Source: an uncultured delta proteobacterium (lineage in GTDB: Bacteria; Desulfobacterota; Desulfomonilia; Desulfomonilales; Desulfomonilaceae). From it: a stretch of 64,000 nt of DNA. The notes below the pieces were generated by a model. The model saw nothing but the letters and a program-made list of their open reading frames with translations. It made no database searches and was not told the origin of the DNA. The stretch's first letter is position 1, and each line of letters begins with the position of its first letter. This document shows positions 1-43,393 of the stretch, one piece after another. A program made the translations under genes and the position numbers. Where the stretch lies: NCBI GenBank assembly GCA_963789265.1, contig CAWBKB010000001.1, positions 1,504,001 through 1,568,000 of the forward strand, in the 5' to 3' direction.

Positions 1-1004
1 AAATAGTCCCTGAGATTGCGGGGAGTTTCTCTCAGGCATTCCATACGTGACGTAAACCGGGCAAAGGGAGTCTGGCCGGTGGAAGAATGTACCCGCTGGT
101 GGTAGATGTCACCCAGCCAGAAGAAGAGGGCTTGATTCAGATCGGCAAGCGTAGTGCCTTTGAAGCCGGACAGAAAATCGCCCCTCACTGTGCGGAAGAA
201 CCGCTCGATTTTCCCTTTGCCTTGTGGCTTGTACGGCCGTGCATGGATAAGGGCGATCCCGAGGCTCGCGGTGACATGCTCCAGGTGATGGGAACGAAAG
301 GCGCTCCCATTGTCGGTATAGATTTTCCTGGGGAGTCCTCTGGTCAAGAGGGCTTCCTCAAGGGCTTTCAAATACGATGGAAGCGACTCGGTGAGATAAA
401 ACTCGGCATGAGGAACCAGGCGAGAGTGATCGTCGATGAATGCAAGGAGATAGGTTTTCCTCTTCTTCCCCTCGTGCTCCACGCTCGGGCCATGCATGCA
501 GTCGGACTGCCACAGATCGTTCGGTAACTCAGCTTCGAATTTCCGTCGATCTTCGAGCCTGGCCTCATCTCCCTTCATCAGACCATTGGTTCTCAGGAAG
601 CGGTGTACCGTTGTAGCGGTGAGAGTGATGCCAGGCGATACCAGTCGTCTCTTGTTCATCTCACGGATCAGCCGGGCGACCGTTGCCTTGGAAAGCTCCG
701 CCCTCAAACGGATCAAAGCCAAACCGGTCTCTTCATCTATGGCGCGGCTCTTCCCATGATCTGATCTATCATGGTTAGCCAGCGCCTCCAGTTTGCCGCC
801 AGAGTCTTTGTAGAGCTTCACCCAGCGCAGGATAGTGCTCCGGGTAATACGGGTCTTGTCCGAGAATGGAATCACCCATTTTCGGTCGCACTTGTCCCTT
901 ATGAGCCTCTCCTGCTCGCCAGGTTCGAGCGCCGCATGTCCTACGAGGTCATGAATCACCCCGAACCGAAACGTTGCAATCTGCTTTTTCTTATCTTCCT
1001 CCAT
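1..1004 (-). CDS. DDE (rve integrase-core) transposase, 3' end outside the window
   Basis: Manual translation MEEDKKKQIATFRFG...RFTSRMECLRETPRNLRDYF; colinear and in frame with the 12599 paralog; absent from the ORF track because it has no stop in the window. Confidence 0.9.
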   Translation of the reverse strand, partial: MEEDKKKQIATFRFGVIHDLVGHAALEPGEQERLIRDKCDRKWVIPFSDKTRITRSTILRWVKLYKDSGGKLEALANHDRSDHGKSRAIDEETGLALIRLRAELSKATVARLIREMNKRRLVSPGITLTATTVHRFLRTNGLMKGDEARLEDRRKFEAELPNDLWQSDCMHGPSVEHEGKKRKTYLLAFIDDHSRLVPHAEFYLTESLPSYLKALEEALLTRGLPRKIYTDNGSAFRSHHLEHVTASLGIALIHARPYKPQGKGKIERFFRTVRGDFLSGFKGTTLADLNQALFFWLGDIYHQRVHSSTGQTPFARFTSRMECLRETPRNLRDY

Positions 1005-1108
1005 CGATCTGCCTCCTTGGGTATGTTGTCTGGGGTGGTACTCCCAAGACAATCCCAGGACAACGACACTCTTCGGTAGGGTGTGTGAGCGTCGATGGAC
1101 AGTGCAGA

Positions 1109-1555
1109 TTAGATGCGACGGGAAACCGGGTTCTCATTTTTGAGTATCAGCTCATCGAATCCCTCCAGCAGGCGTTTGCTCCATTCCTGCCCAAACCGGG
1201 CACACACTCTCCGTGTAAGAGACCTCAGCCAATGGCCCTGCCGAGACCGTGAAATGCCTGCGGGCCATCTCCCATGCTCCAGCCTGAAAGCGATGGACGA
1301 ACGGACCGTCTCGATAGACGCTTGTACCCGTTTGAAATAGCCCGATGGTCGCGCCCTCATCACGCACCTGCACTCCGGGCAGCGATACCGTCGCAAAAAG
1401 AGCTGTTCAGAAAAACCGTCAAAAAAGGCAGGGACAAAGCCATGATACCAGACCCGACGCCCCTCACACCGAGGGCACGCCTCCGGTCTCGGCCAAGGAA
1501 AATCCCGCCCCCTCGCAACTATCTCCTTGATGGAAACAAGAACAGGGAATATCAT
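1109..1555 (-). CDS. IS accessory zinc-ribbon protein (DUF6431-like)
   Basis: CPRC..WYHG..RYRCPEC motifs; 148 aa, paralog of 12047..12493. Confidence 0.85.
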   Translation of the reverse strand: MIFPVLVSIKEIVARGRDFPWPRPEACPRCEGRRVWYHGFVPAFFDGFSEQLFLRRYRCPECRCVMRARPSGYFKRVQASIETVRSSIAFRLEHGRWPAGISRSRQGHWLRSLTRRVCARFGQEWSKRLLEGFDELILKNENPVSRRI

Positions 1556-1723
1556 CAGAACATCCTTTTGTAGGGCCTTACGGCCCGTACATGTTTCGGG
1601 CGGTAGCTCCGTCAAGCCACCGCCCTCTTCATTCCGTCCATCTATTCTGATATTTTCCCCTGCCAGGTCAACCTATTCTGAAAATTTCACCCCTTTTCTG
1701 TCCATTCAATTCGAAATCCTACA

Positions 1724-2262
1724 CAAGGTTCAGACTACCCCTTCTTCGCGTCAGCTATGATCATGTAGTCAAGCGAGAAGGGGTGGCTTTTCTCGAATAT
1801 ATGATAGACCTTCACTTCGGAGAGGAGGCTGTCAAGAAAGGAATAGAAAAAGGACTGTTTGACCCTGATGAAGAGTACTTTCCCGGTATCGAATTCCCAG
1901 GTACTACGAAACTGCATAAAGAGATTCACAACCATGGCGTTTACGCCCCTGGAGATATGCTAAGGTTTCTGAATGAGGAGGAGAGGGAGACTCAACTTTG
2001 GTATCGTGTCCAAGATGAATCCCTAAACTGTCCTACACCTCCTGAACAGGGTCCGTGCAAAGCAACTGTCCAGTTAAAGATTCTAAAAGGTTGGAAGCAG
2101 CCGCAAGAGATTCTTTCCATCAAACGAACAGCAATTCTAACGGACTGCTCTCCGAATCTCGATATTCTTGGAGTCCACGGGTGGCATATAGCATTGGAGT
2201 TTGCAGAGTTCCTATGCTTTCAGGAACTCATGGGAAAGGTTGACAATCTGCTCCACTCGTGA
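1724..2262 (+). pseudogene. 3' part of a hypothetical gene interrupted by IS copy 1
   Basis: The frame of ORF 1783..2262 stays open upstream (RFRLPLLRVSYDHVVKREG) right to the IS end. Confidence 0.6.
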
Positions 2263-5886: not shown

Positions 5887-6188
5887 GACCTCAGTTGGTG
5901 ACGTATATCTACACCTTTGACAATTGAAAACGAGTCAACGGCAGCTTCATAGGAATGACGTAGCGCGCCGATTTTGACCTGGGCAACGTTTGGTGGGATT
6001 CGCTCCGGCCCCCTCTCAGATCGCCTCTGGTTGCCTCTGAGTCAAAGAGGATCTGCTGGAGCGGATTGCTTTCCGAGATTCTACTCAAGACTGTACGCTG
6101 ACAGTCTCTACAACCGTGACCAACCCTTCCTCCATCACCGCTAAATTGCCTTGATACCATCCGATGGTAATCCCATACCACTAATTTC

Positions 6189-12493: not shown

Positions 12494-12598
12494 TCTGCGA
12501 AGCCCGTCGATCCGGTTGCACCCTACCGAAGAGTGCCGTTGTGCTGGGATTGTGTTCGGGGTACCACCCCAGGCAACATACCTAAGGAGGGAGACCCG

Positions 12599-13901
12599 AT
12601 GGACGAAGATGAGAAAAAGCGGATTGCGGCCTTCAGGTTTGGCGTGATTCACGACCTGGTGGGGAATGTGGAGCTGGAACCCGGTGAGCAGGAGCGCCTG
12701 ATACGGGAGAAGTGCGACCGGAAATGGGTGATACCCTTTTCACAGAAGACTCGTATTACCCGCAGCACAATTTTGCGCTGGGTGAAGCTCTACAAGGAGT
12801 CCGGCGGCAAATTGGAGGTGTTGGCCAACCGAGGGAGGTCTGATAACGGCAAGAGTCGCGCCATAGACGAAGAGACCAGTTTGGCTTTGATCCGTTTGAG
12901 GTATGAGCTTCCCAAGGCTACCATAGCCCGTCTCTTGCGTGAGATGAACAAGCGACAACTGGTCTCTCCGGGGCTAGTCCTTACTAGATCAACAGTACAC
13001 CGCTTCTTGAGCAGCAATGGTCTCATGAAGCAGAATCAGATCACGGCCGAAGACCGCAGACGGTTTGAAGCTGAACTGCCCAATGATCTGTGGCAGTCGG
13101 ATTGCATGCACGGGCCAAAAGTGGATCATCAGGGGAAGAATCGAAAGACCTATCTCATTGCTTTCATAGACGACCATTCCAGGTTGGTTCCTCATGCCGA
13201 GTTTTACCTCTCCGAGTCACTCCCGTCGTTTCTGAAAGCCCTTGAAGAAGCCCTCTTGACCAGAGGGCTACCCAGAAAAATCTATACGGACAATGGAAGT
13301 GCCTTTCGCTCCCATCATCTGGAACACGTCACGGCAAGCCTTGGGATTGCTCTCATCCATGCAAGGCCGTACAAACCACAGGGAAAGGGAAAAATAGAGA
13401 GGTTCTTCCGAACCGTGAGGGGGGACTTTCTGTCTTGCTTCAAAGGAAATACGCTTGCCGAGCTGAATCAAGCCCTGTTCTTCTGGTTGAATGACATCTA
13501 TCATCAGAGAATACACTCCTCAACAGGGCAAACCCCCTTTGCTCGGTTCACTTCAAGAATGGAATGCCTGAGAGAAGCCCCTCACAATCTCAAAGACTAT
13601 TTTCGCAAGACCGTGCGGCGCAGAGTAGCAAAGGACAGGACCATAAGCCTGGACGGAAGGATCTATGAAGCACCTGTCTCACTCATCGGGCGTCAGGTGG
13701 CCCTTCTGTACCACGAGGGGGAACCGGAGCGAGTAGAGATCATGCTCGGCGGGGTCTCCTACGGTATGGCCACCCCCGTAAACCTCCACGTCAATTGCCG
13801 GGTGAAGCGGGATAAGGTACAGCAGCATTAGACTGGAAGGCACGGAACAATCCGAAAAATACCAGAGTGGCGGCCTCTGGGGGAAGAGAGGCCGTAAATG
13901 A
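12599..13901 (+). CDS. DDE transposase (rve core + Mu-type C-terminus); apparent +1 frameshift at ~13816
   Basis: WQSD, FIDDHSR, YTDNGS, GKIERFF motifs; as given it stops at 13831; removing one G extends it to TGA 13899-13901, overlapping the ATPase ATG. Confidence 0.9.
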
Positions 13902-14707
13902 GTACCAATTACCGCTCATTTTTCGGTATGACTCGTGAGGCTTTCCCAACGGATATAAGCGTCAAGGACATCATGGAGACTCAAGATATCAAGGCTATCA
14001 AAGAGCGCTTTGATTATACGGTCAGGCTGGGGGCCATTGCGACCATCACCGGTGAGGTGGGATCGGGAAAGTCTACAGCGCTCCGGTACGTTATCTCGAA
14101 GCTTCACCCCTCAGAATACAAAACCCTCTGGATTACTGCCTGTTCAGGCTCGATCCTGGAGTTTTATCGGCTCTTTCTCGCTGAATTCGGCGTACACATG
14201 GCAGGCTCGTCAAAAGCGGTGATGGTACGCCTCATAAAAAAGGCAATACGGGAAATCATCCTTGAGAAGAAGATGAAAATCGTGCTGGTCGTCGATGAGG
14301 CGGGCCTATTGCGCCTGGAGGTCCTTGCCGAACTCCACACCATCACCCAATTCGAGGCTGACTCAAAACCCTGGCTCCCCATCATCCTTACGGGGAGGTC
14401 GAATCTCATCGACAAACTCATGTATCAAACATCCCTGCCGCTCGCTTCAAGGGGCGTCGCACGAACCCACATGGAACCTGTAGAAAGACAAGAGATGGAG
14501 CATTACCTACTCCATCACCTTGCTCTCACCGGCGTCAAATCCAACCTCTTCGATGATCCGGCCATCACAGCCATCCATCAAGGCTCAGGAGGAATATTCA
14601 GAAAGGCAAATCATCTGGCAAGAGGGGCTCTCATCGCAGCGGCCGACAGCCAATCTACCCTCGTTACCGCCGACCACGTCAGGCTGGCTGCCACGGAAAT
14701 CTTTTAA
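13898..14707 (+). CDS. ExeA-like AAA ATPase (transposition helper)
   Basis: Walker A GEVGSGKS, Walker B LVVDEA. Confidence 0.92.
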   Translation: MSTNYRSFFGMTREAFPTDISVKDIMETQDIKAIKERFDYTVRLGAIATITGEVGSGKSTALRYVISKLHPSEYKTLWITACSGSILEFYRLFLAEFGVHMAGSSKAVMVRLIKKAIREIILEKKMKIVLVVDEAGLLRLEVLAELHTITQFEADSKPWLPIILTGRSNLIDKLMYQTSLPLASRGVARTHMEPVERQEMEHYLLHHLALTGVKSNLFDDPAITAIHQGSGGIFRKANHLARGALIAAADSQSTLVTADHVRLAATEIF

Positions 14708-16097
14708 GCAACCAAAACCGGGCCGGACCACCAGGCCCGGTCCAGACAATCTGAAAAAAACAGGAGGATTATCCCAAATAATCAGAGAAAATCGGTCAAT
14801 CTAATGTGGGAAACAACACCTTGTCCAACAGAACCTTCACTGGTTCCACGTTACGACTACGTGAGGCCCACATCAGTGCTGTCCCACCATCCCTATCCTT
14901 GGCATTGACGTCCGCTCCCTTGTCCAACAGGGTCTTCAGCACCTCAACGTGACCAAACCACGAGGCATACATCAGTGCTGTCCTGCCAAAGAAACCGATG
15001 GCATTGACACCCGCTCCCTTGTCCAACAGAACCTTCACTGTCTCCACGCGACCAGATAATGAAGCCTCCATCAGTAATGTCAACTCACTCGGTGTCATCG
15101 CATTGACATCCCCACCTTCAGCCAAGAGACCTTCCACAGCAGCGGTGTCGCCTCTTCTGACAGCTTGATCTAAAAGAAAGTAGCTATCACGCTTGGCTTC
15201 ATGCTCTGAACAGAAACAGACTTCGATTTCAGCATGAGGATCACTCGGTTTGAAATCACTTATCTCGTATTTCACTTGTTTAGGGGAAATAAGTGTTTGA
15301 GTGCTTGTCGCCGGTTCTCCACGTACTCGAAAATTCATTTTGCTAGCCTGATTTCCATCTATAATAAAAACAGCCTTTCCTATCGTACCGTTCCAAAACG
15401 AACCTGTTCCGTAAATATACCTCGCGCAAATACCCTCGTATTTCGCCTTGTATCGCACGCGCGTCACCGTAGCAGAATGACCTGAAAACGTCACTTTCTT
15501 TGCCATCCAGTGATCGCCCGGAACCCCCGTGGGTTCGCCGTCTTCGTCTGAAAGAAACTTGTGGACGGAATCCCACAACCCCGGAAGATTACCTTTCTCA
15601 CTTACTTCTGTGAATTCTACTTCTTGGTCGTTAACCCAAGTTTCAAATTTAATAAATTGAAAGGTCTTACCAAAAACTTTCGGAAAACCAACCCACTCCG
15701 TGGTGGTTTCCCCAGCGTTAAAGAAGTGAAAGACAGCATCGACGATATAGCTATCGTACAGCAACTTAATAGTTACTTCTTCGGATTCCATTCTAATCGA
15801 TTGGTGGTGACCTTTTGGCGACGGACCTCCCCCAACTAATCCCATCGGCATCTCATTTGTTTCTCCCAGACTAGTGAAGAAAAGAGATGCCCCGCTCGCC
15901 AGGCACAAAAGAAGTACAAATAATCTCATGGGTATCCCCCGTAAAACCCATTGCCTGCTCAGTTTTAGTGTGAGCAGTCCCCCGTGACCGGACCCAGGCA
16001 AGAACCGGCGTGACGTTGATGAAAAAGTCCATTTTAGGCTGTTGCTAAATATACCTAGCCCTCCGCTGCTGCGTCAACCATTTCTTCCACCGCATCG

Positions 16098-16290
16098 TCA
16101 CCCGAACACCGTTCGGTAGTATCAAGCCAAAGCGAAGGCTGAAGCCACATGGACCTGCCACCTCCTACCGTGATATGCGACCTTCGCTCCGACTTTGATC
16201 AGACGCTTGACGAGCCATTTTAATGGCCGTTTGACTTCTTCGCCCGTCAAGTAGAATTGCCGGAGCATGTGCAGGAAGATCAGGAAACGT
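16098..16290 (-). pseudogene. C-terminal remnant of a transposase (IS1380-like)
   Basis: FLIFLHMLRQFYL..WLVKRLIKVGAKVAYHGRRWQVHVASAFALA*YYRTVFG; internal TGA. Confidence 0.6.
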
Positions 16291-16320
16291 AAACGTGTCC
16301 ACTCACGGTCACAGGCTAAC

Positions 16321-16540
16321 CAATGATTCTTACCTGTCCTTCGAAGGGACACCTAGCCTCAAGGCGTCACCGCATGTTGTCCTTCCGTACTCGTCATCTC
16401 GTTTGTCAGCTCCCCCAGCGGATATTCTCGACAAAATTGACCTCCTGAGAACCACGTAGGGCGACGATCTGGGTCAGAGCAAGGGGTAAGGCAGGGGGCA
16501 ACAGAGGTTGCGGGAAATCGCATCTGAGTGGCTCGTCTGC
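16321..16540 (+). ncRNA. Putative structured non-coding element, family B copy 1
   Basis: Homologous to 18772-18990 with conserved stems and swapped hairpin sequences; no shared reading frame. Confidence 0.55.
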
Positions 16541-16779
16541 TCGACCGAACCCGGTCCCTTTCTGCTTGACGGTTTTCACAGTCCCTTATACTGTCCGAAT
16601 TGTTCCAGCAGGCATCAAGCCGGTGCCATAGATATTCCGGGTATCAGGATTGTGCCTCCCGAGAAGCGCCGCGGGAGGAGAGCAGCTTACATTCTTGGAA
16701 TCCCTAGAAATGGAGGCTCAAAACGTCAAGTATAAGACACAGAGCCATACAAGGCATCAAAGCGGGGGACGAATTTTCG

Positions 16780-17205
16780 GTGTCACGCACTTTCACGGAA
16801 CAGGACGTGATGCAATTTGCGGACTTGTCCCGAGATTACAACCCCGTCCATCTGGAGGATCGATTCGCCAAGGCAAAGAAGTTCGGTGGAAGGATCTGTC
16901 ACGGTCTTCTCGTGGGGAGCATGCTTACCGAAATCGGTGGACAGATAGGCGTCCTCGCCTCTCATATGGACTTCGTGTTCAAGAAGCCGGTCTATTTTGG
17001 AGATACTGTGACCTGCTGTTGGACCTTCACTGAGATTGACCAGAAAGGTCGCGCCAAAGCACAGGTAGTGTTTCAAAATCAAGACGAGATCGTCGTACTC
17101 ACTGCCACTGTCAAAGGAATTATACCGGGCGTGCCGGAAAGAGCAATCTTGAAGGCTATGGTCGAAGAAGGAGATCCAACAAACAAGCTTTCCGGGAAGT
17201 TGTAA
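16780..17205 (+). CDS. MaoC-family dehydratase
   Basis: FADLSRDYNPVH...ICHGLL...FKKPVYFGD hot-dog fold motif. Confidence 0.88.
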   Translation: MSRTFTEQDVMQFADLSRDYNPVHLEDRFAKAKKFGGRICHGLLVGSMLTEIGGQIGVLASHMDFVFKKPVYFGDTVTCCWTFTEIDQKGRAKAQVVFQNQDEIVVLTATVKGIIPGVPERAILKAMVEEGDPTNKLSGKL

Positions 17206-17229
17206 GCCAGTGGGTTGATGTCACTAAGA

Positions 17230-17267
17230 TAACGCCTCCGCTAGTCGGCGGGGTTGTCGGGGGATAC
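17230..17267 (+). repeat. Partial (3' module) copy of family A element
   Basis: TAACGCCTCCG-ctagt-CGGCGGGGTTGTCGGGGGATAC matches 11554-11595 and 18695-18735. Confidence 0.7.
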
Positions 17268-17340
17268 GAAGACGATAGAATAATCACCATCGAAATCCCC
17301 AATCCTGCAGCCGAGCTATCGCTTCGTTCAAAACGCCTTT

Positions 17341-18405
17341 CTAATCTTCGAGGCGTGGCACTGTGTCTTCGGCAATGAGATCGTCAAGAATAGCAATCCC
17401 TTTGATCGGGTGTTCGTTGAGATGCGAGATCATGGGAAAGATGTGTTTCTGAGCAAACTCCAGAGCGAGCAGAACATGGCTGAAGAACCACGTCTTGTCT
17501 TGGGGCTCCCTGTCAGCCACATTCATGCACTCTAAGATTTGCTGCCATTTACTTCGCCGCTTCGACTTCTTACCTGCGAAAAGGCTCCTAGCCTGCCCGT
17601 GAGCAACTGCTGAGCGGATGTCATAAAGGTGTCCTAAGAGCGTTGTCATTTGCGTGAAATTGAGTTTTCGAGCCGTCTGATCAAAACCCCACAGATCAGC
17701 ATCCTTCACGAATTTGGTGTAATAGGCTGAGCCAATCAGTCTGAACTGCACAGAGATTTCTGCCGAGGCTCCTTGAACAAACAGACTTTCAAGACCGGCA
17801 ATCATGAGAACGACGGCTTCGCAGAGGTCCAAGTAATCGTAATAACGATATTTCCCAGAAAAACCGTTTATAGTCCAAAAAGACTTCTGGAGGAGCACGA
17901 TGCTCCCCGCCAAGGATTCGTTGCTGTGAAAGAGATCAAACCAGGCTTCAACAGAGGAATTAGAAGGAATCCAGTCCTGCTGATCGGGTCGCCGATTAAG
18001 CGAGAAACCGCTGTGAGAAGATGATTCCGTGAAAATCTCTTCGTCAGTGGCTTGGCCCTCTTTTTTTGGCTGGCCCAGCATGAAAAGCAGCTTCAGCTCA
18101 ATATCTTTTGGCAGATTCTTAGGATACGAGAAATAGAATATTTTCCGCGGACGACGATCATTCACGAACAAGGCAAGCAAAATGTTTTCCAAATCCTGGA
18201 CTGCTCGGTAAATCTCGGCGTCTTGAAAGTTGAGCCGAATTTGTCGGTTAAAAATCATGGAGAAGGAGCGGTCATCGACGCACCAATCGGCGAATCTGAA
18301 CGAGGAATATTTTGCAGTAGTGTAAGAGCCAGGCCCCACTACTGCCGAAAGCATAAAGGTTTCTTGCTCAATTTGCTGCCGCTTCAATGTTCCTACCTTC
18401 AACAT
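17341..18405 (-). CDS. HEPN-domain protein (ApeA-like C-terminal HEPN)
   Basis: IAGLESLF and LYDIRSAVAHG (RxxxxH) motifs. Confidence 0.75.
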   Translation of the reverse strand: MLKVGTLKRQQIEQETFMLSAVVGPGSYTTAKYSSFRFADWCVDDRSFSMIFNRQIRLNFQDAEIYRAVQDLENILLALFVNDRRPRKIFYFSYPKNLPKDIELKLLFMLGQPKKEGQATDEEIFTESSSHSGFSLNRRPDQQDWIPSNSSVEAWFDLFHSNESLAGSIVLLQKSFWTINGFSGKYRYYDYLDLCEAVVLMIAGLESLFVQGASAEISVQFRLIGSAYYTKFVKDADLWGFDQTARKLNFTQMTTLLGHLYDIRSAVAHGQARSLFAGKKSKRRSKWQQILECMNVADREPQDKTWFFSHVLLALEFAQKHIFPMISHLNEHPIKGIAILDDLIAEDTVPRLED

Positions 18406-18486
18406 CTCGGTACTGTCTTGGTCGTTGTGTTGGATTGGAGCTATAGATACGACATGGAAAGAAACTTCGCAATATGATGAAGCGAA

Positions 18487-18737
18487 AGGGAGGCGATTCT
18501 GCCCAGGAAGGAAATCACGGAACCCTCAAGTTCAGGCAACCGGCAACGGTGAGTGCAAACGTGACCGGGTACACGGGTACTGCGAAGGACCCACCCCCGG
18601 CTGGGACTTGACATCGCCTCTCAAGGGTATCTCCGACAGCCTTGGAAAAAAAAGGCCCCTCCGCGAAGCCTGAACCTCGAAAGAGTCGCGAGAGTAATGC
18701 CTCCGACGAAAATCGGCGGGGTTGTTGAGGGATACCC
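18487..18737 (+). ncRNA. Putative structured non-coding element, family A copy 2
   Basis: Same conserved blocks as 11353-11596; GCAA and GAAA tetraloop hairpins in the variable positions. Confidence 0.6.
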
Positions 18738-18771
18738 AAGTTCACTTGCCCTTCATGACTCACGGGTTTAC

Positions 18772-18990
18772 CCAATGATTTCTACCTGTCCTTCGATGGG
18801 ACACCTAGCCTCAACTCTCGGCACTTTGTCCTTCCGTACTCATCATCTCGTTTCTCAGCTCTCCCAGCGGATATTCTCAAAAGATGGACGCCCTGAGAAC
18901 AACGTAGAGCCACGATCTGGGGTCGGTGAAGGGTAAGGGTCGGGAGAAAAAGCACGACCCGCAAATCGCATCTGAGAGGCTCGTGGCTGC
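18772..18990 (+). ncRNA. Putative structured non-coding element, family B copy 2
   Basis: Homologous to 16321-16540. Confidence 0.55.
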
Positions 18991-19292
18991 CGCGCTTCAG
19001 GAGCGTATTGGAGAGGCATCGTGTCGCTACCGGAAGTGGGCGGAGGGACATTTCGGGTAGAATATCTCCCTTCGCTTTGTCATGCGGGTCCGCTTAATAA
19101 CCATCCTGAAAAAATATTCACCTTATTTCATAAGGGGATTTTGTATATTTCGACTCGCTGCAAGTTGCATTCTAAACATGTTGACTTACATTCTAGTCTA
19201 CCAACCTTGTCTCTCAGATAAGACGAACCTGCCAAACATCTCTGTCACGGAAAACGTCTTTCTTACATCAACACTCAATGGAGGTGTGCAAC

Positions 19293-19472
19293 ATGATACC
19301 GGAATACCCAGCATCCATAACAATAAGGGTTCCACATGACATCCGCTCACAGCTCGAATCCATGTCTCTGAGGGAGGATAAGCCCATCTCTCGCATAGTC
19401 AGGTCAGTTATAGCAGAGGGGCTGAAACAGAAAATGGCTCCTGACAATGACTTCATCGAACTCGAAGCGTAA
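19293..19472 (+). CDS. Ribbon-helix-helix (CopG/Arc-like) protein
   Basis: GGAGGT RBS; SITIRVPHDIRSQLESMS...ISRIVRSVIAEGL. Confidence 0.75.
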   Translation: MIPEYPASITIRVPHDIRSQLESMSLREDKPISRIVRSVIAEGLKQKMAPDNDFIELEA

Positions 19473-19666: not shown

Positions 19667-20821
19667 ATGCTAACAGAAAGACACAAAACAGAGCCAGATT
19701 TACCCCCTCAAGACCTCGTAACCGCTGCCTTGGACTACGCCCGCAAAGGCTTCCGAATCTTTCCCCTTCATTCAGTTGACGATCAGGGACATTGCTCCTG
19801 TGGAAAACAAGACTGCGGCAGCCCCGGCAAACACCCGCGGAACTGGAACGGTCTCAAGGGAGCCACCACCGACGAGACCCAAATCCTCAAGTGGTGGACG
19901 AAGTTCCCTGATGCGAACATAGGTATCCGCACCGGCAAGGGTCTCTTCGTCCTAGACGTGGATGAGGACGAAGGCGAAGATTCTCTCCGTGACCTTGAAG
20001 AGAAGTGTGGAAAACTTCCAGAGACCTGGGAATGCCTCACCGGACGTGGACGCCATATCTATCTGCTATCACCCACCGACAAATACATAAAGAGTTCAAG
20101 AAGCCTGATCGGAACCAAACTGGACGTCCGCTGTGAGGGAGGCTACGTAGTTGCGCCTCCTTCCCGGCATTACTTTGGAAACCGCTATGAATGGGAATGT
20201 ACGTGTCATTCAGAAGATATTCCTATGGCGGAGGCTCCTGAATGGATGATTCGACTCGCGTGTACGAAGAAGAGATCGAAATCAAATCAGAGGTGGGGCA
20301 GTACCTTCAAACCAGTCCTTCACATCGGGGAGCGGAACGAGACCCTGTTCAAAGAGGCATGCCATCTCAGAGACCTGGGCTTATCCAGGGAAAGGGTAGA
20401 GCATTATACACGCCTCCGCAATCGGTGTGATTGCCAGCCTCCTCTCAAAGACACGGAAGTGGAGACCATACTTCGTCAGGCATACAGATATTCCAAACGC
20501 CCCTGTCGAAAAGGCCGATTGTCTCCGGGTTCCGAGAGAGTTTTCCGTTACCTCGTGGAAAGATCATTGCATAGGGGCAACTGCTTGCTCAGCAAGGAAG
20601 AGATAGCGATTGCTGTCGGTTTGAAGAAGAGGCAGGTCTTCACCTGTATTCGCCAGTTGGAAAGACAAGGGCTATTACGGGTTCAGGAGCATAACGGTAT
20701 GGAAAGTCTATATTTTCCCCAGACCCATGCAGTACCCATGCAGTCCTTACATATAGGGGCAAGGGAAAGTACAGATTCTGAGTCCCCTATACAAGAGACA
20801 CCCCTGAGAGTCATGAAATAA
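19667..20821 (+). CDS. Bifunctional DNA primase/polymerase (Prim-Pol) with PriCT-like and C-terminal wHTH domains
   Basis: ALDYARKGFRIFPL, CSCG..C..PGKHP, ANIGIRTG, VLDVD, GRHIY, GGYVVAPPS, GERNETLF. Confidence 0.9.
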   Translation: MLTERHKTEPDLPPQDLVTAALDYARKGFRIFPLHSVDDQGHCSCGKQDCGSPGKHPRNWNGLKGATTDETQILKWWTKFPDANIGIRTGKGLFVLDVDEDEGEDSLRDLEEKCGKLPETWECLTGRGRHIYLLSPTDKYIKSSRSLIGTKLDVRCEGGYVVAPPSRHYFGNRYEWECTCHSEDIPMAEAPEWMIRLACTKKRSKSNQRWGSTFKPVLHIGERNETLFKEACHLRDLGLSRERVEHYTRLRNRCDCQPPLKDTEVETILRQAYRYSKRPCRKGRLSPGSERVFRYLVERSLHRGNCLLSKEEIAIAVGLKKRQVFTCIRQLERQGLLRVQEHNGMESLYFPQTHAVPMQSLHIGARESTDSESPIQETPLRVMK

Positions 20822-41972: not shown

Positions 41973-42329
41973 ATGAGTTCCAACGTAATCCTGTTACCAA
42001 GGGTGATTCGACGCAGGGATGCAGCAGCATATCTGGGCATGGACAAGAATCGATTTGATCGAGAAGTCCGACCCTCCCTGACCGAATTCCCTATTGGGGA
42101 TCAGGGCGTTGGATTCGATAGGCTTGACTTGGACAACTGGTATGAAGAGTATAAGGCTCGCAACGGTCGTCCCGGCAAGCAGAAAGGAGCAAATAAGCTA
42201 TGGGACGAAAGAAAGTCGCCGGTCTCATCAACCGTAAAGGGATATGGCACCTCGACAAAGTTGTCCGAGGAAGAAGAGTTTGCGAAAGTACTGGCGAAAG
42301 TAACATCGAGAAAGCGGAAGAGTATCTAG
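41973..42329 (+). CDS. Excisionase-like HTH protein
   Basis: IRRRDAAAYLGMDKNRF...FDRLDLDNW; GGGAG RBS; overlaps the integrase 5' end by 130 nt. Confidence 0.8.
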   Translation: MSSNVILLPRVIRRRDAAAYLGMDKNRFDREVRPSLTEFPIGDQGVGFDRLDLDNWYEEYKARNGRPGKQKGANKLWDERKSPVSSTVKGYGTSTKLSEEEEFAKVLAKVTSRKRKSI

Positions 42330-43297
42330 CACGTAGAATTGAGGCGATCAGGCAAGCAGAGATTTACGGCGTGAGGCCGAAGAGAAGTTTTCGCCAGGCT
42401 GCAACTAAGTATTTGAAAGAGGCCACGAAGGCCAGTATAGGTCGAGATGCAGACCTACTGAAAGTATTGGAACCATTCATCGGGGACCTTCCCCTAGACT
42501 CCATCCACATGGGGAAGCTGCAGGCGTTTATTGTGAACCGTGAGGCTGCTGGGTGGAAAAAACGGACTATCAACTATGGCTTACAGGTGGTCAGGCACAT
42601 CCTCAACTTGGCTGTGAACGAATGGATAGACGAGTACGGTATGACTTGGTTGTCTCATACACGAAAGGTTAAGCTCCTCAAGGAAGACGACAAGAAGGAG
42701 CCGTACCCTCTGTCCTGGCAGGAGCAGGTACGCCTCTTTGACGAGTTGCCGCCTTATTTGGCGAAGATGGCACTATTCAAGGTCAATACGGGATGCCGGG
42801 ACCAAGAGGTTTGCAACCTCTTGTGGGAATGGGAAGTGCCCGTGCCTGAACTGAACACCTCTGTCTTTATCATCCCTGCCCACCTGGTTAAGAATCGGCA
42901 GGATCGACTGGTGGTGTTAAACCGGGCCGCTAAGGCAGTGGTTGAGGAAATGCGCGGAGTCCATCCTACACACGTGTTTTCCTACAAAGGTAAGCCCCTT
43001 CAAAGGATGTACAACCGGGCCTGGAGGGAAGGGCGTAAGCGTGCCGGACTCCCCCATATCCGGGTTCACGACTTGAAACATACCTTCGGGCGCAGGCTCC
43101 GATCTATCGGAGTGTCTTTTGAGGATCGGCAGGATTTGTTAGGCCACAAGTCCAGCAGGATCACAACCCACTATTCTCGGGCCGAACTGGCGAATCTCAT
43201 CTCCGCCTCGAACAGAGTGTGTGACAACGAGTCCCGCAAAAGTCCCGCACTGGTTATCTTGAAAAAGAAACCCCGCCTTGCCGTCGTCAACAACTAG
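42200..43297 (+). CDS. int: Phage-type tyrosine integrase
   Basis: TGCRDQE, KN, HDLKHTFG, LLGH, TTHY catalytic motifs; adjacent to a tRNA. Confidence 0.95.
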   Translation: MGRKKVAGLINRKGIWHLDKVVRGRRVCESTGESNIEKAEEYLARRIEAIRQAEIYGVRPKRSFRQAATKYLKEATKASIGRDADLLKVLEPFIGDLPLDSIHMGKLQAFIVNREAAGWKKRTINYGLQVVRHILNLAVNEWIDEYGMTWLSHTRKVKLLKEDDKKEPYPLSWQEQVRLFDELPPYLAKMALFKVNTGCRDQEVCNLLWEWEVPVPELNTSVFIIPAHLVKNRQDRLVVLNRAAKAVVEEMRGVHPTHVFSYKGKPLQRMYNRAWREGRKRAGLPHIRVHDLKHTFGRRLRSIGVSFEDRQDLLGHKSSRITTHYSRAELANLISASNRVCDNESRKSPALVILKKKPRLAVVNN

Positions 43298-43317
43298 GCG
43301 GGATTCTTAATGATTCG

Positions 43318-43393
<76 letters not shown>

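Follow-up and report, generated by a model that had tools for sequence, protein, structure and literature searches.

The array of an integron is built on a single type of site, attC, of 60–140 nt, an imperfect palindrome with conserved outer core words and extrahelical bases, which is repeated in one orientation between single cargo genes. Several orphan RNAs are carried on mobile DNA, among them the HEARO/IscB omega RNA, ROOL, GOLLD, and raiA. IS200/IS605 ends and REP/BIME repeats are characterized by hairpin ends, a strong orientation bias, passenger-carrying derivatives, and tyrosine (HUH) transposases, and Correia-type elements are 100–155 bp long with terminal inverted repeats. Element B, which is described here, is a new member of a broad and already known kind, the multicopy structured intergenic repeats on mobile DNA. 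It is found in a 64,000-nt stretch of the genome of an uncultured member of the Desulfomonilaceae (assembly GCA_963789265.1, contig CAWBKB010000001.1, positions 1,504,001–1,568,000), the whole of which is termed the window, and it is accompanied by a second repeat family, A. The reading that is tentatively preferred, at a probability that falls somewhat short of even, is that B is the head and A the tail of mobile accessory-gene cassettes, with B giving start signals and folding in its + strand.

The arrangement of B is reminiscent of integrons and of attC arrays that lack an integrase: co-oriented noncoding repeats stand between unrelated single cargo genes in accessory DNA, and, as in attC arrays, a hairpin of B is kept by fold and not by sequence. 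The main differences are that the window's own genome (G000, 95.6% complete) has no integron integrase above the model cutoff, that there are two long modules (~255 and ~330 nt), that sequence is strongly conserved between helices, and that the genes face both ways along the array, consistently from B to A. Similar to the HEARO, ROOL, GOLLD, and raiA RNAs, B is several hundred nucleotides long, multihairpin, noncoding, multicopy, and situated by mobile genes, but it has no Rfam 15 match at E ≤ 10 and no linked nuclease or partner gene, and its covariation is moderate. The hairpin-bearing, orientation-biased A and B modules also resemble IS200/IS605 ends and REP/BIME repeats. Unlike IS200/IS605 elements, the arrays have no adjacent transposase and no TnpB, the modules are far longer, and the hairpins of the two ends differ. 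The Correia-type repeats of Neisseria are described as carrying promoters and terminators (PMC5039591). B is likewise multicopy and intergenic, with a proposed effect on the transcription of neighboring genes, whereas no terminal inverted repeats are found on B and B is paired with a second module.

Extent and Distribution of Element B

Two copies of B, the upstream B1 and the downstream B2, are present in the window (Table 1). A repeat search returns 16317-16536 and 18769-18984 as direct repeats with three blocks of 91%, 89%, and 71% identity, in agreement with the pair originally predicted; blastn aligns B1 and B2 at 79.6% over 221 columns (E 1.3e-45), and their column identity in a MAFFT alignment is 83%. 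The sequence blocks cited in that prediction are present in both copies, in the sequence and in the MAFFT alignment, as is the hairpin that it described as wholly swapped between them (H1).

The predicted unit of 220 nt does not stand. Both the homology of B2 to relatives and the conserved core reach past 18990, the predicted end: window positions 18612-19219 align with contig C201 of relative G005 (75% over 619 columns), and 18761-19172 align with contig C15 of relative G006. In a family-wide DNA search, conservation and repetition are both highest toward the 3′ side (query positions ~160-330 of 18745-19090), in a region half of which lies beyond 18990, and B2 continues to at least 19075. A third, diverged copy is located on contig C8 of the same genome. 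B1, by contrast with B2, ends near 16537 without the 3′ half of the core; because it stops there, matches only positions 5-94 of the 203-position nhmmer profile of the core, and is not detected at E ≤ 0.01 by the covariance model R1, B1 is a truncated copy, and it is probably a dead one. The 220-nt unit is the mere overlap of a fragment (B1) with a full copy (B2). The predicted gap of 35 nt between family A and B2 is also absent: the nhmmer match to A ends at 18749, the B-type homology seen against B1, G005, G006, and the C8 copy begins at ~18745-18762, and the two modules abut.

The B copies, many of them fragmentary, all derive from a single bacterial family, in which a few soil relatives of sulfate reducers carry them. 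R1, which was built from 18 copies and has 164 positions and 40 pairs, gives 36 matches in the DNA examined. In a survey set of 70 genomes and 26 genera (order and family are here equivalent), the core is present in 11 genomes and five genera; nine of these genomes have 2–12 matches and two (G082 and G089) have one each, and the matches are often clustered on a single contig. A pattern scan of metagenomes, which was swamped by unrelated abundant sequence, gave 119 loci, none of them B-like by blastn at E ≤ 1e-3, and a scan of a genome collection gave only three relatives already known and two matches taken as chance. A limited literature search for such repeats in this bacterial group found nothing. 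One unit of B, a small open reading frame (ORF), and A is present twice in the window's own genome (G000:C1:1469298-1470317 and G000:C5:419017-420036) with identical search statistics, which reflects either a recent duplication event or a duplicate in the assembly.

Arrays of B, A, and Cargo Genes

B and A are arranged in one direction. In the DNA examined, 18 copies of A and 44 distinct copies of B were mapped, and the counts of orientation and polarity are drawn from related genomes. A is located within 2 kb of 17 of the 44 B copies, and the two share a strand in all 19 B-A relations; of 13 pairs of adjacent B copies no more than 10 kb apart, 12 are co-oriented. A and B are linked, in line with the suggestion that they might be partners: both are present in nine of the 70 genomes, A only in five, B only in two, and neither in 54, counts that come from different search methods and related genomes and do not constitute a statistical test.

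The genes between the modules have a polarity. Where an interval from B to A holds an ORF, the longest is on the strand of B in seven of eight cases, and in the intervals from A to B the longest is on the opposite strand in seven of seven; three A-to-B gaps leave no room for an ORF. The longest ORF is thus directed from B to A in 14 of 15 intervals, and the genes run away from B and toward A. Since the flanking genes run toward A, A would be located where transcription ends. The cargo itself is unrelated from unit to unit and includes MaoC, VOC/glyoxalase, MFS transporter, S41 peptidase, choloylglycine hydrolase, Schlafen-AlbA_2, and multihaem cytochrome genes.

In the window, B1 is followed by a MaoC-like gene on the + strand and by a short piece of A, which closes a B1-MaoC-A unit. 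A 354-aa ORF on the − strand comes next, then the full A copy abutting B2, and then two genes on the + strand, one read as RHH-like and the other encoding a Prim-Pol protein. B also directly follows A in G005.

The 3′ end of A is sharp. G000:C8 and G005:C201 share a VOC gene with its A copy at 89% identity over 840 nt, and beyond the 3′ end of A their homology is lost. This VOC/glyoxalase unit (G000:C8:117869-118697 and G005:C201:14039-14869) includes ~100 nt upstream, and its flanks differ. Partial copies retain terminal pieces, which are the final 45-90 nt in the case of A and the region of the H3 hairpin in that of B. Among short contigs from four DNA runs, no joint showing excision was observed; one contig spans the junction of A and B2 unchanged, and others break at A ends and around H3. 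As a further example of an array, the first 20 kb of one contig in relative G080 (G080:C135:1-20000) contains five B cores, all in the same orientation, with A pieces and terminal repeats of insertion sequences (ISs) among them; its cargo comprises an MFS transporter, an HU-like protein, an S41 peptidase, a choloylglycine hydrolase, Schlafen-AlbA_2, and a multihaem cytochrome.

Fold and Covariation of B

In the model-fitted alignment, 70.3% of the 1154 helix cells of R1 are standard pairs, compared with 35-47% when the partners are slid, and the covariation score of 0.126, compared with 0.03-0.09 in controls, is reached by 0 of 500 shuffles. Two hairpins of B show clear compensatory changes. 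The first, H1, is the swapped hairpin, which truly covaries at the level of the family. Across 27 copies, the 36 nt that precede the next conserved block have a mean minimum free energy (MFE) of -6.2 kcal/mol, compared with -4.4 kcal/mol for shuffles, and the 13 copies with a stem of at least 4 bp have 13 different stems. The second, H3, corresponds to helix 6 of the model and is its best helix, in which 83% of cells are paired and both partners have changed in five of the 11 pairs. H3 reads by eye as an 11-bp palindrome that is nearly perfect and has no bulges, and a column-pair scan recovers this hairpin only.

The + strand folds better than its complement: its MFE is lower in 21 of 23 B cores (means of -48.8 and -40.3 kcal/mol). 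The placement of G-U pairs had been claimed to favor the same strand, which it does only mildly, with 108 G-U cells against 82 A-C cells in the model-fitted alignment. Because the hairpins covary, some single-stranded form of the + strand would matter, and a transcript would be likelier than single-stranded DNA because there are several helices, some of them long-range, and conserved unpaired blocks.

The five pairings named in the original prediction (TGTCC/GGACA, TTCTC/GAGAA, CCCAG/CTGGG, TACC/GGTA, and AGCC/GGCT) fare less well, with no covariation in five copies. They are 75% paired in the five copies that have the 5′ half, as expected for helices derived from two of those rows; 120 of 500 shuffles score at least as high as their 0.110, helices 1-4 contain no double change, and the crossing pair contains none either. 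For five sequences in a plain alignment, RNAalifold predicts 54 pairs with a positive (penalizing) covariation term. A pairing between the loop of H3 and the pyrimidine tract that follows it was considered and rejected: it reaches 10 bp in B2, yet the mean over 29 copies is 5.7, against 5.3 in shuffles and 5.4 in an upstream control. Taken together, these tests point both ways, and support for a structure of B is moderate.

Beyond the conserved core, the B2 tail contains a short palindromic hairpin with a T-rich run and, farther on, a candidate promoter (Table 1). The terminator scan found the former on both strands, in B2 and G005 only. A conserved + strand terminator that would end B was rejected, as the 190 nt after the core contain a terminator-like site in 4 of 29 copies on the + strand and in 11 of 29 on the − strand. 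The three B2-type copies (B2, G005, and G006, aligned and read by eye) all retain the candidate promoter at 19165-19192, which the consensus scan does not report.

One alternative is that B is a free-standing structured small RNA gene of ~300-400 nt on the + strand, with a promoter and an end of its own, which is carried on mobile DNA and whose position by genes is incidental. The multihelix model with its covariation above controls, the survival of H1 and H3 pairing through double changes, the conserved unpaired motifs between helices, the better folding of the + strand, the absence of a coding signal, and the hairpin with T-run after the core in the B2 lineage would all fit such a gene. The consensus scan, however, found no promoter upstream of B, terminator-like sites after the core are more frequent on the − strand, the folding of the whole B2 copy is not significant, many copies are partial, and the polarity of the genes and the co-orientation with A are left unexplained. 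A free-standing RNA gene is considered unlikely.

Coding Potential and Known Families

B is noncoding. Substitutions between B and its counterparts in four relatives are spread evenly over the codon positions (17/12/14, 14/16/16, 12/14/20, and 10/13/14). As originally noted, a common frame is broken by indels: the lengths of 23 family copies are distributed 9/7/7 modulo 3, and any one frame is free of stops in at most seven of the 23 copies. The ORF on the − strand at 18782-19051 (89 aa), the conservation of which would have spoken for a protein, matches no Pfam family, and its counterpart in G006 contains stops in all three − frames. A decayed or very short protein-coding sequence, such as this ORF, is therefore highly improbable. 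ORFs of 54-89 aa do overlap B2 on both strands, and a + strand ORF crosses the same region in B2 and G005, but the even substitutions, the length distribution, the stops in most frames, the lack of a Pfam family, and the fact that B1 and B2 are out of frame with each other all stand against it.

No Rfam 15 family is matched by B. At the gathering score, the only Rfam matches in the whole window are two tRNAs, and a search of 15800-19400 at E ≤ 10 yields three weak matches to unrelated families, none of which is on B1, B2, or A.

Mobility and the IS1380-Family Element

That the units move is suggested by the sharp boundaries at the 3′ end of A and the 5′ end of B, by fragments retaining terminal pieces, and by the patchy multicopy spread. 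No target-site duplication and no conserved target word are observed at the ends examined. No inverted repeat brackets B in seven loci tested for a miniature inverted-repeat transposable element, and an IS1380-family terminal repeat follows B in one copy only (G000:C8). The integrase encoded in the window scores 18.9 bits against the integron integrase model TIGR02249. A Y1 transposase or TnpB may yet act on the B arrays in trans.

A second alternative is that B and A act only as DNA, as cassette ends or as the arms of a joined attachment site for a site-specific recombinase or an HUH-type transposase, with hairpins that form in single-stranded DNA like those of integron attC sites or IS200/IS605 ends. 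The co-oriented arrays with single unrelated cargo genes, the sharp 3′ end of A with B directly next to it, the retention of terminal pieces of both modules, the almost perfect palindrome of H3, the stems that vary while the fold is kept, and the patchy multicopy distribution would all be expected of such ends. It is less easily reconciled with the lack of an integron integrase above the cutoff, the distant Y1 matches, the lack of TnpB, the dissimilarity of the A and B hairpins, the lack of a conserved target word or duplication, and the length of the conserved modules (250-400 nt), which is great for pure enzyme sites. Genes also occupy the intervals that lead from an A to the following B, a placement not predicted by a simple B-cargo-A cassette. 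A role as DNA alone is accordingly judged improbable, to much the same degree as a free-standing RNA gene.

To the left of B1, on the − strand, are the C-terminus and terminal region of an IS1380-family transposase, and the junction between B1 and this right end recurs in G006:C15. The remnant (15970-16352) is 75-82% identical in DNA to full-length copies in relatives. This element is very abundant among these bacteria: it is found with a 79-aa query in 41 of the 70 genomes, as intact ORFs of 442-448 aa and many fragments, and several B copies of G080, G083, and G005 start with the terminal repeat and ~240 nt of the element. IS1380-family members are described as having strong outward promoters, mobilizing DNA by their 3′ end, and leaving ~200-bp remnants upstream of genes (PMC9330008). 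This behavior fits the remnants located directly upstream of cargo genes here, and the right-end remnants beside B resemble the IS1380 modules of that source (ISEcp1 and ISPme1). It does not account for B: in contrast to those modules, B is on the inner side of the remnants and not in captured DNA, and the full-length element lacks B.

The IS1380-family element also suggests a third alternative, in which B is a decaying, functionless piece of that IS or of a miniature derivative. B1 and the G006 copy abut a truncated right end, the copies noted above begin with the terminal repeat, one copy (G000:C8) is followed by an outward-facing terminal repeat, and miniature derivatives with these repeats exist in the genome. 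However, seven full-length copies, with ~400 nt upstream of the ORF in view, contain no B core at nhmmer E ≤ 0.1, and the complete miniature derivatives in the genome contain no B. Moreover, B2, the G005 copy, the C8 copy, and others have no such end alongside, and covarying hairpins would not be expected under neutral decay. Functionless debris is thus a doubtful explanation, and a distinctly improbable one.

The same seven full-length copies hold the "C" part at 74.7-83.3% identity. Three related proposals were rejected: B is not the antisense of the 5′ untranslated region of the IS1380-family element, as full-length copies lack B; B as the interior of a complete miniature element has one supporting copy only (G000:C8); and the 3′ part of A as a surrogate IS end was ruled out on orientation, by eye only. 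A 1.7-kb IS1380-family derivative at G000:C1:107243-108926 has 46-nt inverted repeats (80% complementary) and two small ORFs that by eye look like an antitoxin/toxin pair, and its transposase is a C-terminal stub only; a choloylglycine-hydrolase-type gene starts 5 nt past its end.

Other Features of the Window

The coordinates of the features are collected in Table 1. The full copy of A contains, on the − strand at 18671-18653, a terminator-like site with a 7-bp stem and eight T. The small gene downstream of B2, for which the label RHH is our own reading of the sequence, is also found, conserved, behind B in G005, and a counterpart of it exists in G006.

Table 1. Features of the window that bear on elements B and A
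Feature	Position	Strand	Remarks
Weak partial B-core-like match	6017..6067	+	R1, 21.4 bits, E 4.5e-4; model positions 58-108
IS1380-family right-end remnant (transposase C-terminus and terminal region)	15970..16352	-	abuts B1; weak PF13701
B1, 3′-truncated B copy	16290..16540	+	5′ two thirds only; abuts truncated IS1380-family right end
MaoC-like dehydratase gene	16780..17205	+	cargo between B1 and short A piece; Pfam PF01575, E 5.2e-17
Short 3′ piece of family A	17220..17270	+	just past MaoC-like gene; blastn, repeat search, nhmmer A positions 221-266
354-aa ORF	17341..18405	-	between short A piece and full A copy, pointing to the latter; no Pfam/NCBIfam family
Family A copy	18472..18749	+	abuts B2; nhmmer E 2.1e-77
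B2, full B copy	18745..19075	+	originally predicted 18772-18990 plus conserved 3′ part; homology to G005:C201 and G006:C15
Family-wide conserved core of B	18905..19065	+	R1 match, 144 bits, E 2.3e-38
H1 hairpin	18937..18960	+	GGGTCG/CGACCC around purine-rich loop; B1 counterpart 16498-16511, GCAAC/GTTGC
H3, terminal hairpin	19028..19059	+	11-nt arms, G-rich 10-nt loop; best-conserved piece; outside originally predicted coordinates
Short palindromic hairpin, then T-rich run	19121..19150	+	B2 tail; read from sequence
Sigma-70-like promoter candidate	19165..19192	+	TTGCAT-16 nt-TACATT; ~85 nt before RHH-like gene; by eye
Small gene, read as RHH-like	19278..19472	+	downstream of B2; no Pfam/NCBIfam family
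Prim-Pol gene	19667..20821	+	PF09250, E 9e-46

The IS1380-family remnant is directly upstream of an ankyrin-repeat gene (14796-16001, −), and the repeat search places the 3′ tail motif of family A, inverted, at 15929-15949, where the remnant is broken and the ankyrin gene begins. Positions 12533-14707 (+) encode an IS481-family transposase (NCBIfam, 226 bits) and, after it, an AAA_22 ATPase, and an inverted second copy is found at the start of the window (1-1728; 79% identity over 1738 nt). At 42200-43393, a tyrosine integrase gene ends 20 nt before a tRNA-Phe (43318-43393, −), which suggests that an island is integrated at tRNA-Phe. No repeat of the tRNA-Phe end was found elsewhere in the window. 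B as a marker of the attachment repeat of this island was rejected, as the tRNA-end repeat is nowhere near B.

Discussion

The preferred reading, with B as head and A as tail, can be stated as a tentative model. B would be the noncoding head of small accessory-gene units that are stacked one way in mobile-element-rich islands of some Desulfomonilaceae, with ~330 nt conserved in a full copy (18745-19075) and, in the B2 lineage, an AT-rich tail after it. B would stand at transcription starts, the tail of the B2 lineage offering a promoter-like site for the RHH-like and Prim-Pol genes, and A would stand at transcription ends and supply stop signals through its − strand terminator-like hairpin. 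The hairpins of B would fold in single-stranded nucleic acid of the + strand, most likely a leader or a short transcript, and the units may be spread by an enzyme acting in trans, through recombination or transposition at their sharply bounded A-3′ and B-5′ ends.

A number of observations weigh against this model. With respect to the fold, 30% of the helix cells are nonstandard and 23% (261 of 1154) are neither standard pairs nor A-C, the alignment behind the 70.3% figure was fitted to our own structure and leans toward it, and the excess of G-U over A-C cells is small. As a whole, B2 is not more stably folded than shuffled sequences (z = -0.66 for the + strand and +0.52 for the − strand), and RNAalifold returns 0 pairs for a plain MAFFT alignment of 25 B copies. 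The polarity is drawn from 15 nonindependent intervals in related genomes, of which two share one ORF and one is reversed. With respect to transcription, the consensus scan reports no sigma-70-type promoter in B itself or upstream, and the promoter candidate in the tail was read by eye and is limited to the B2 lineage. With respect to movement, no recombinase or transposase is tied to the arrays: the best match to TIGR02249 in G000 has 82.4 bits against a cutoff of 265, with none above it, the six Y1 transposase (PF01797) matches in G000 are on other contigs or far from the arrays, and TnpB (PF07282) has no match in G000. In addition, no target-site duplication or terminal inverted repeat was found for the B-to-A unit.

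A bolder version of the head-and-tail model would make A and B the ends of a new kind of mobile gene cassette, which stacks head to tail without an integron integrase and in which the fold of the long A and B ends, joined in an excised form, is used, as RNA or as single-stranded DNA, by an enzyme in trans to move the cassette and also sets the transcription of the cargo. The probability of this version is low, below that of either a free-standing RNA gene or a DNA-only role.

Should B prove to be only a regulatory or decaying repeat, the results would be of practical use: for the description of an RNA family, the 220-nt unit and its pseudoknot are unfit, and B1 and about half of the copies are fragments. 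If the head-and-tail model is true, the accessory genes of these bacteria would be ordered in part in one-directional arrays of two long noncoding modules, a layout for gene capture unlike that of integrons in a genome with no integron integrase by the one family model searched. Family A would then acquire a specific partner and a fixed position at gene ends.

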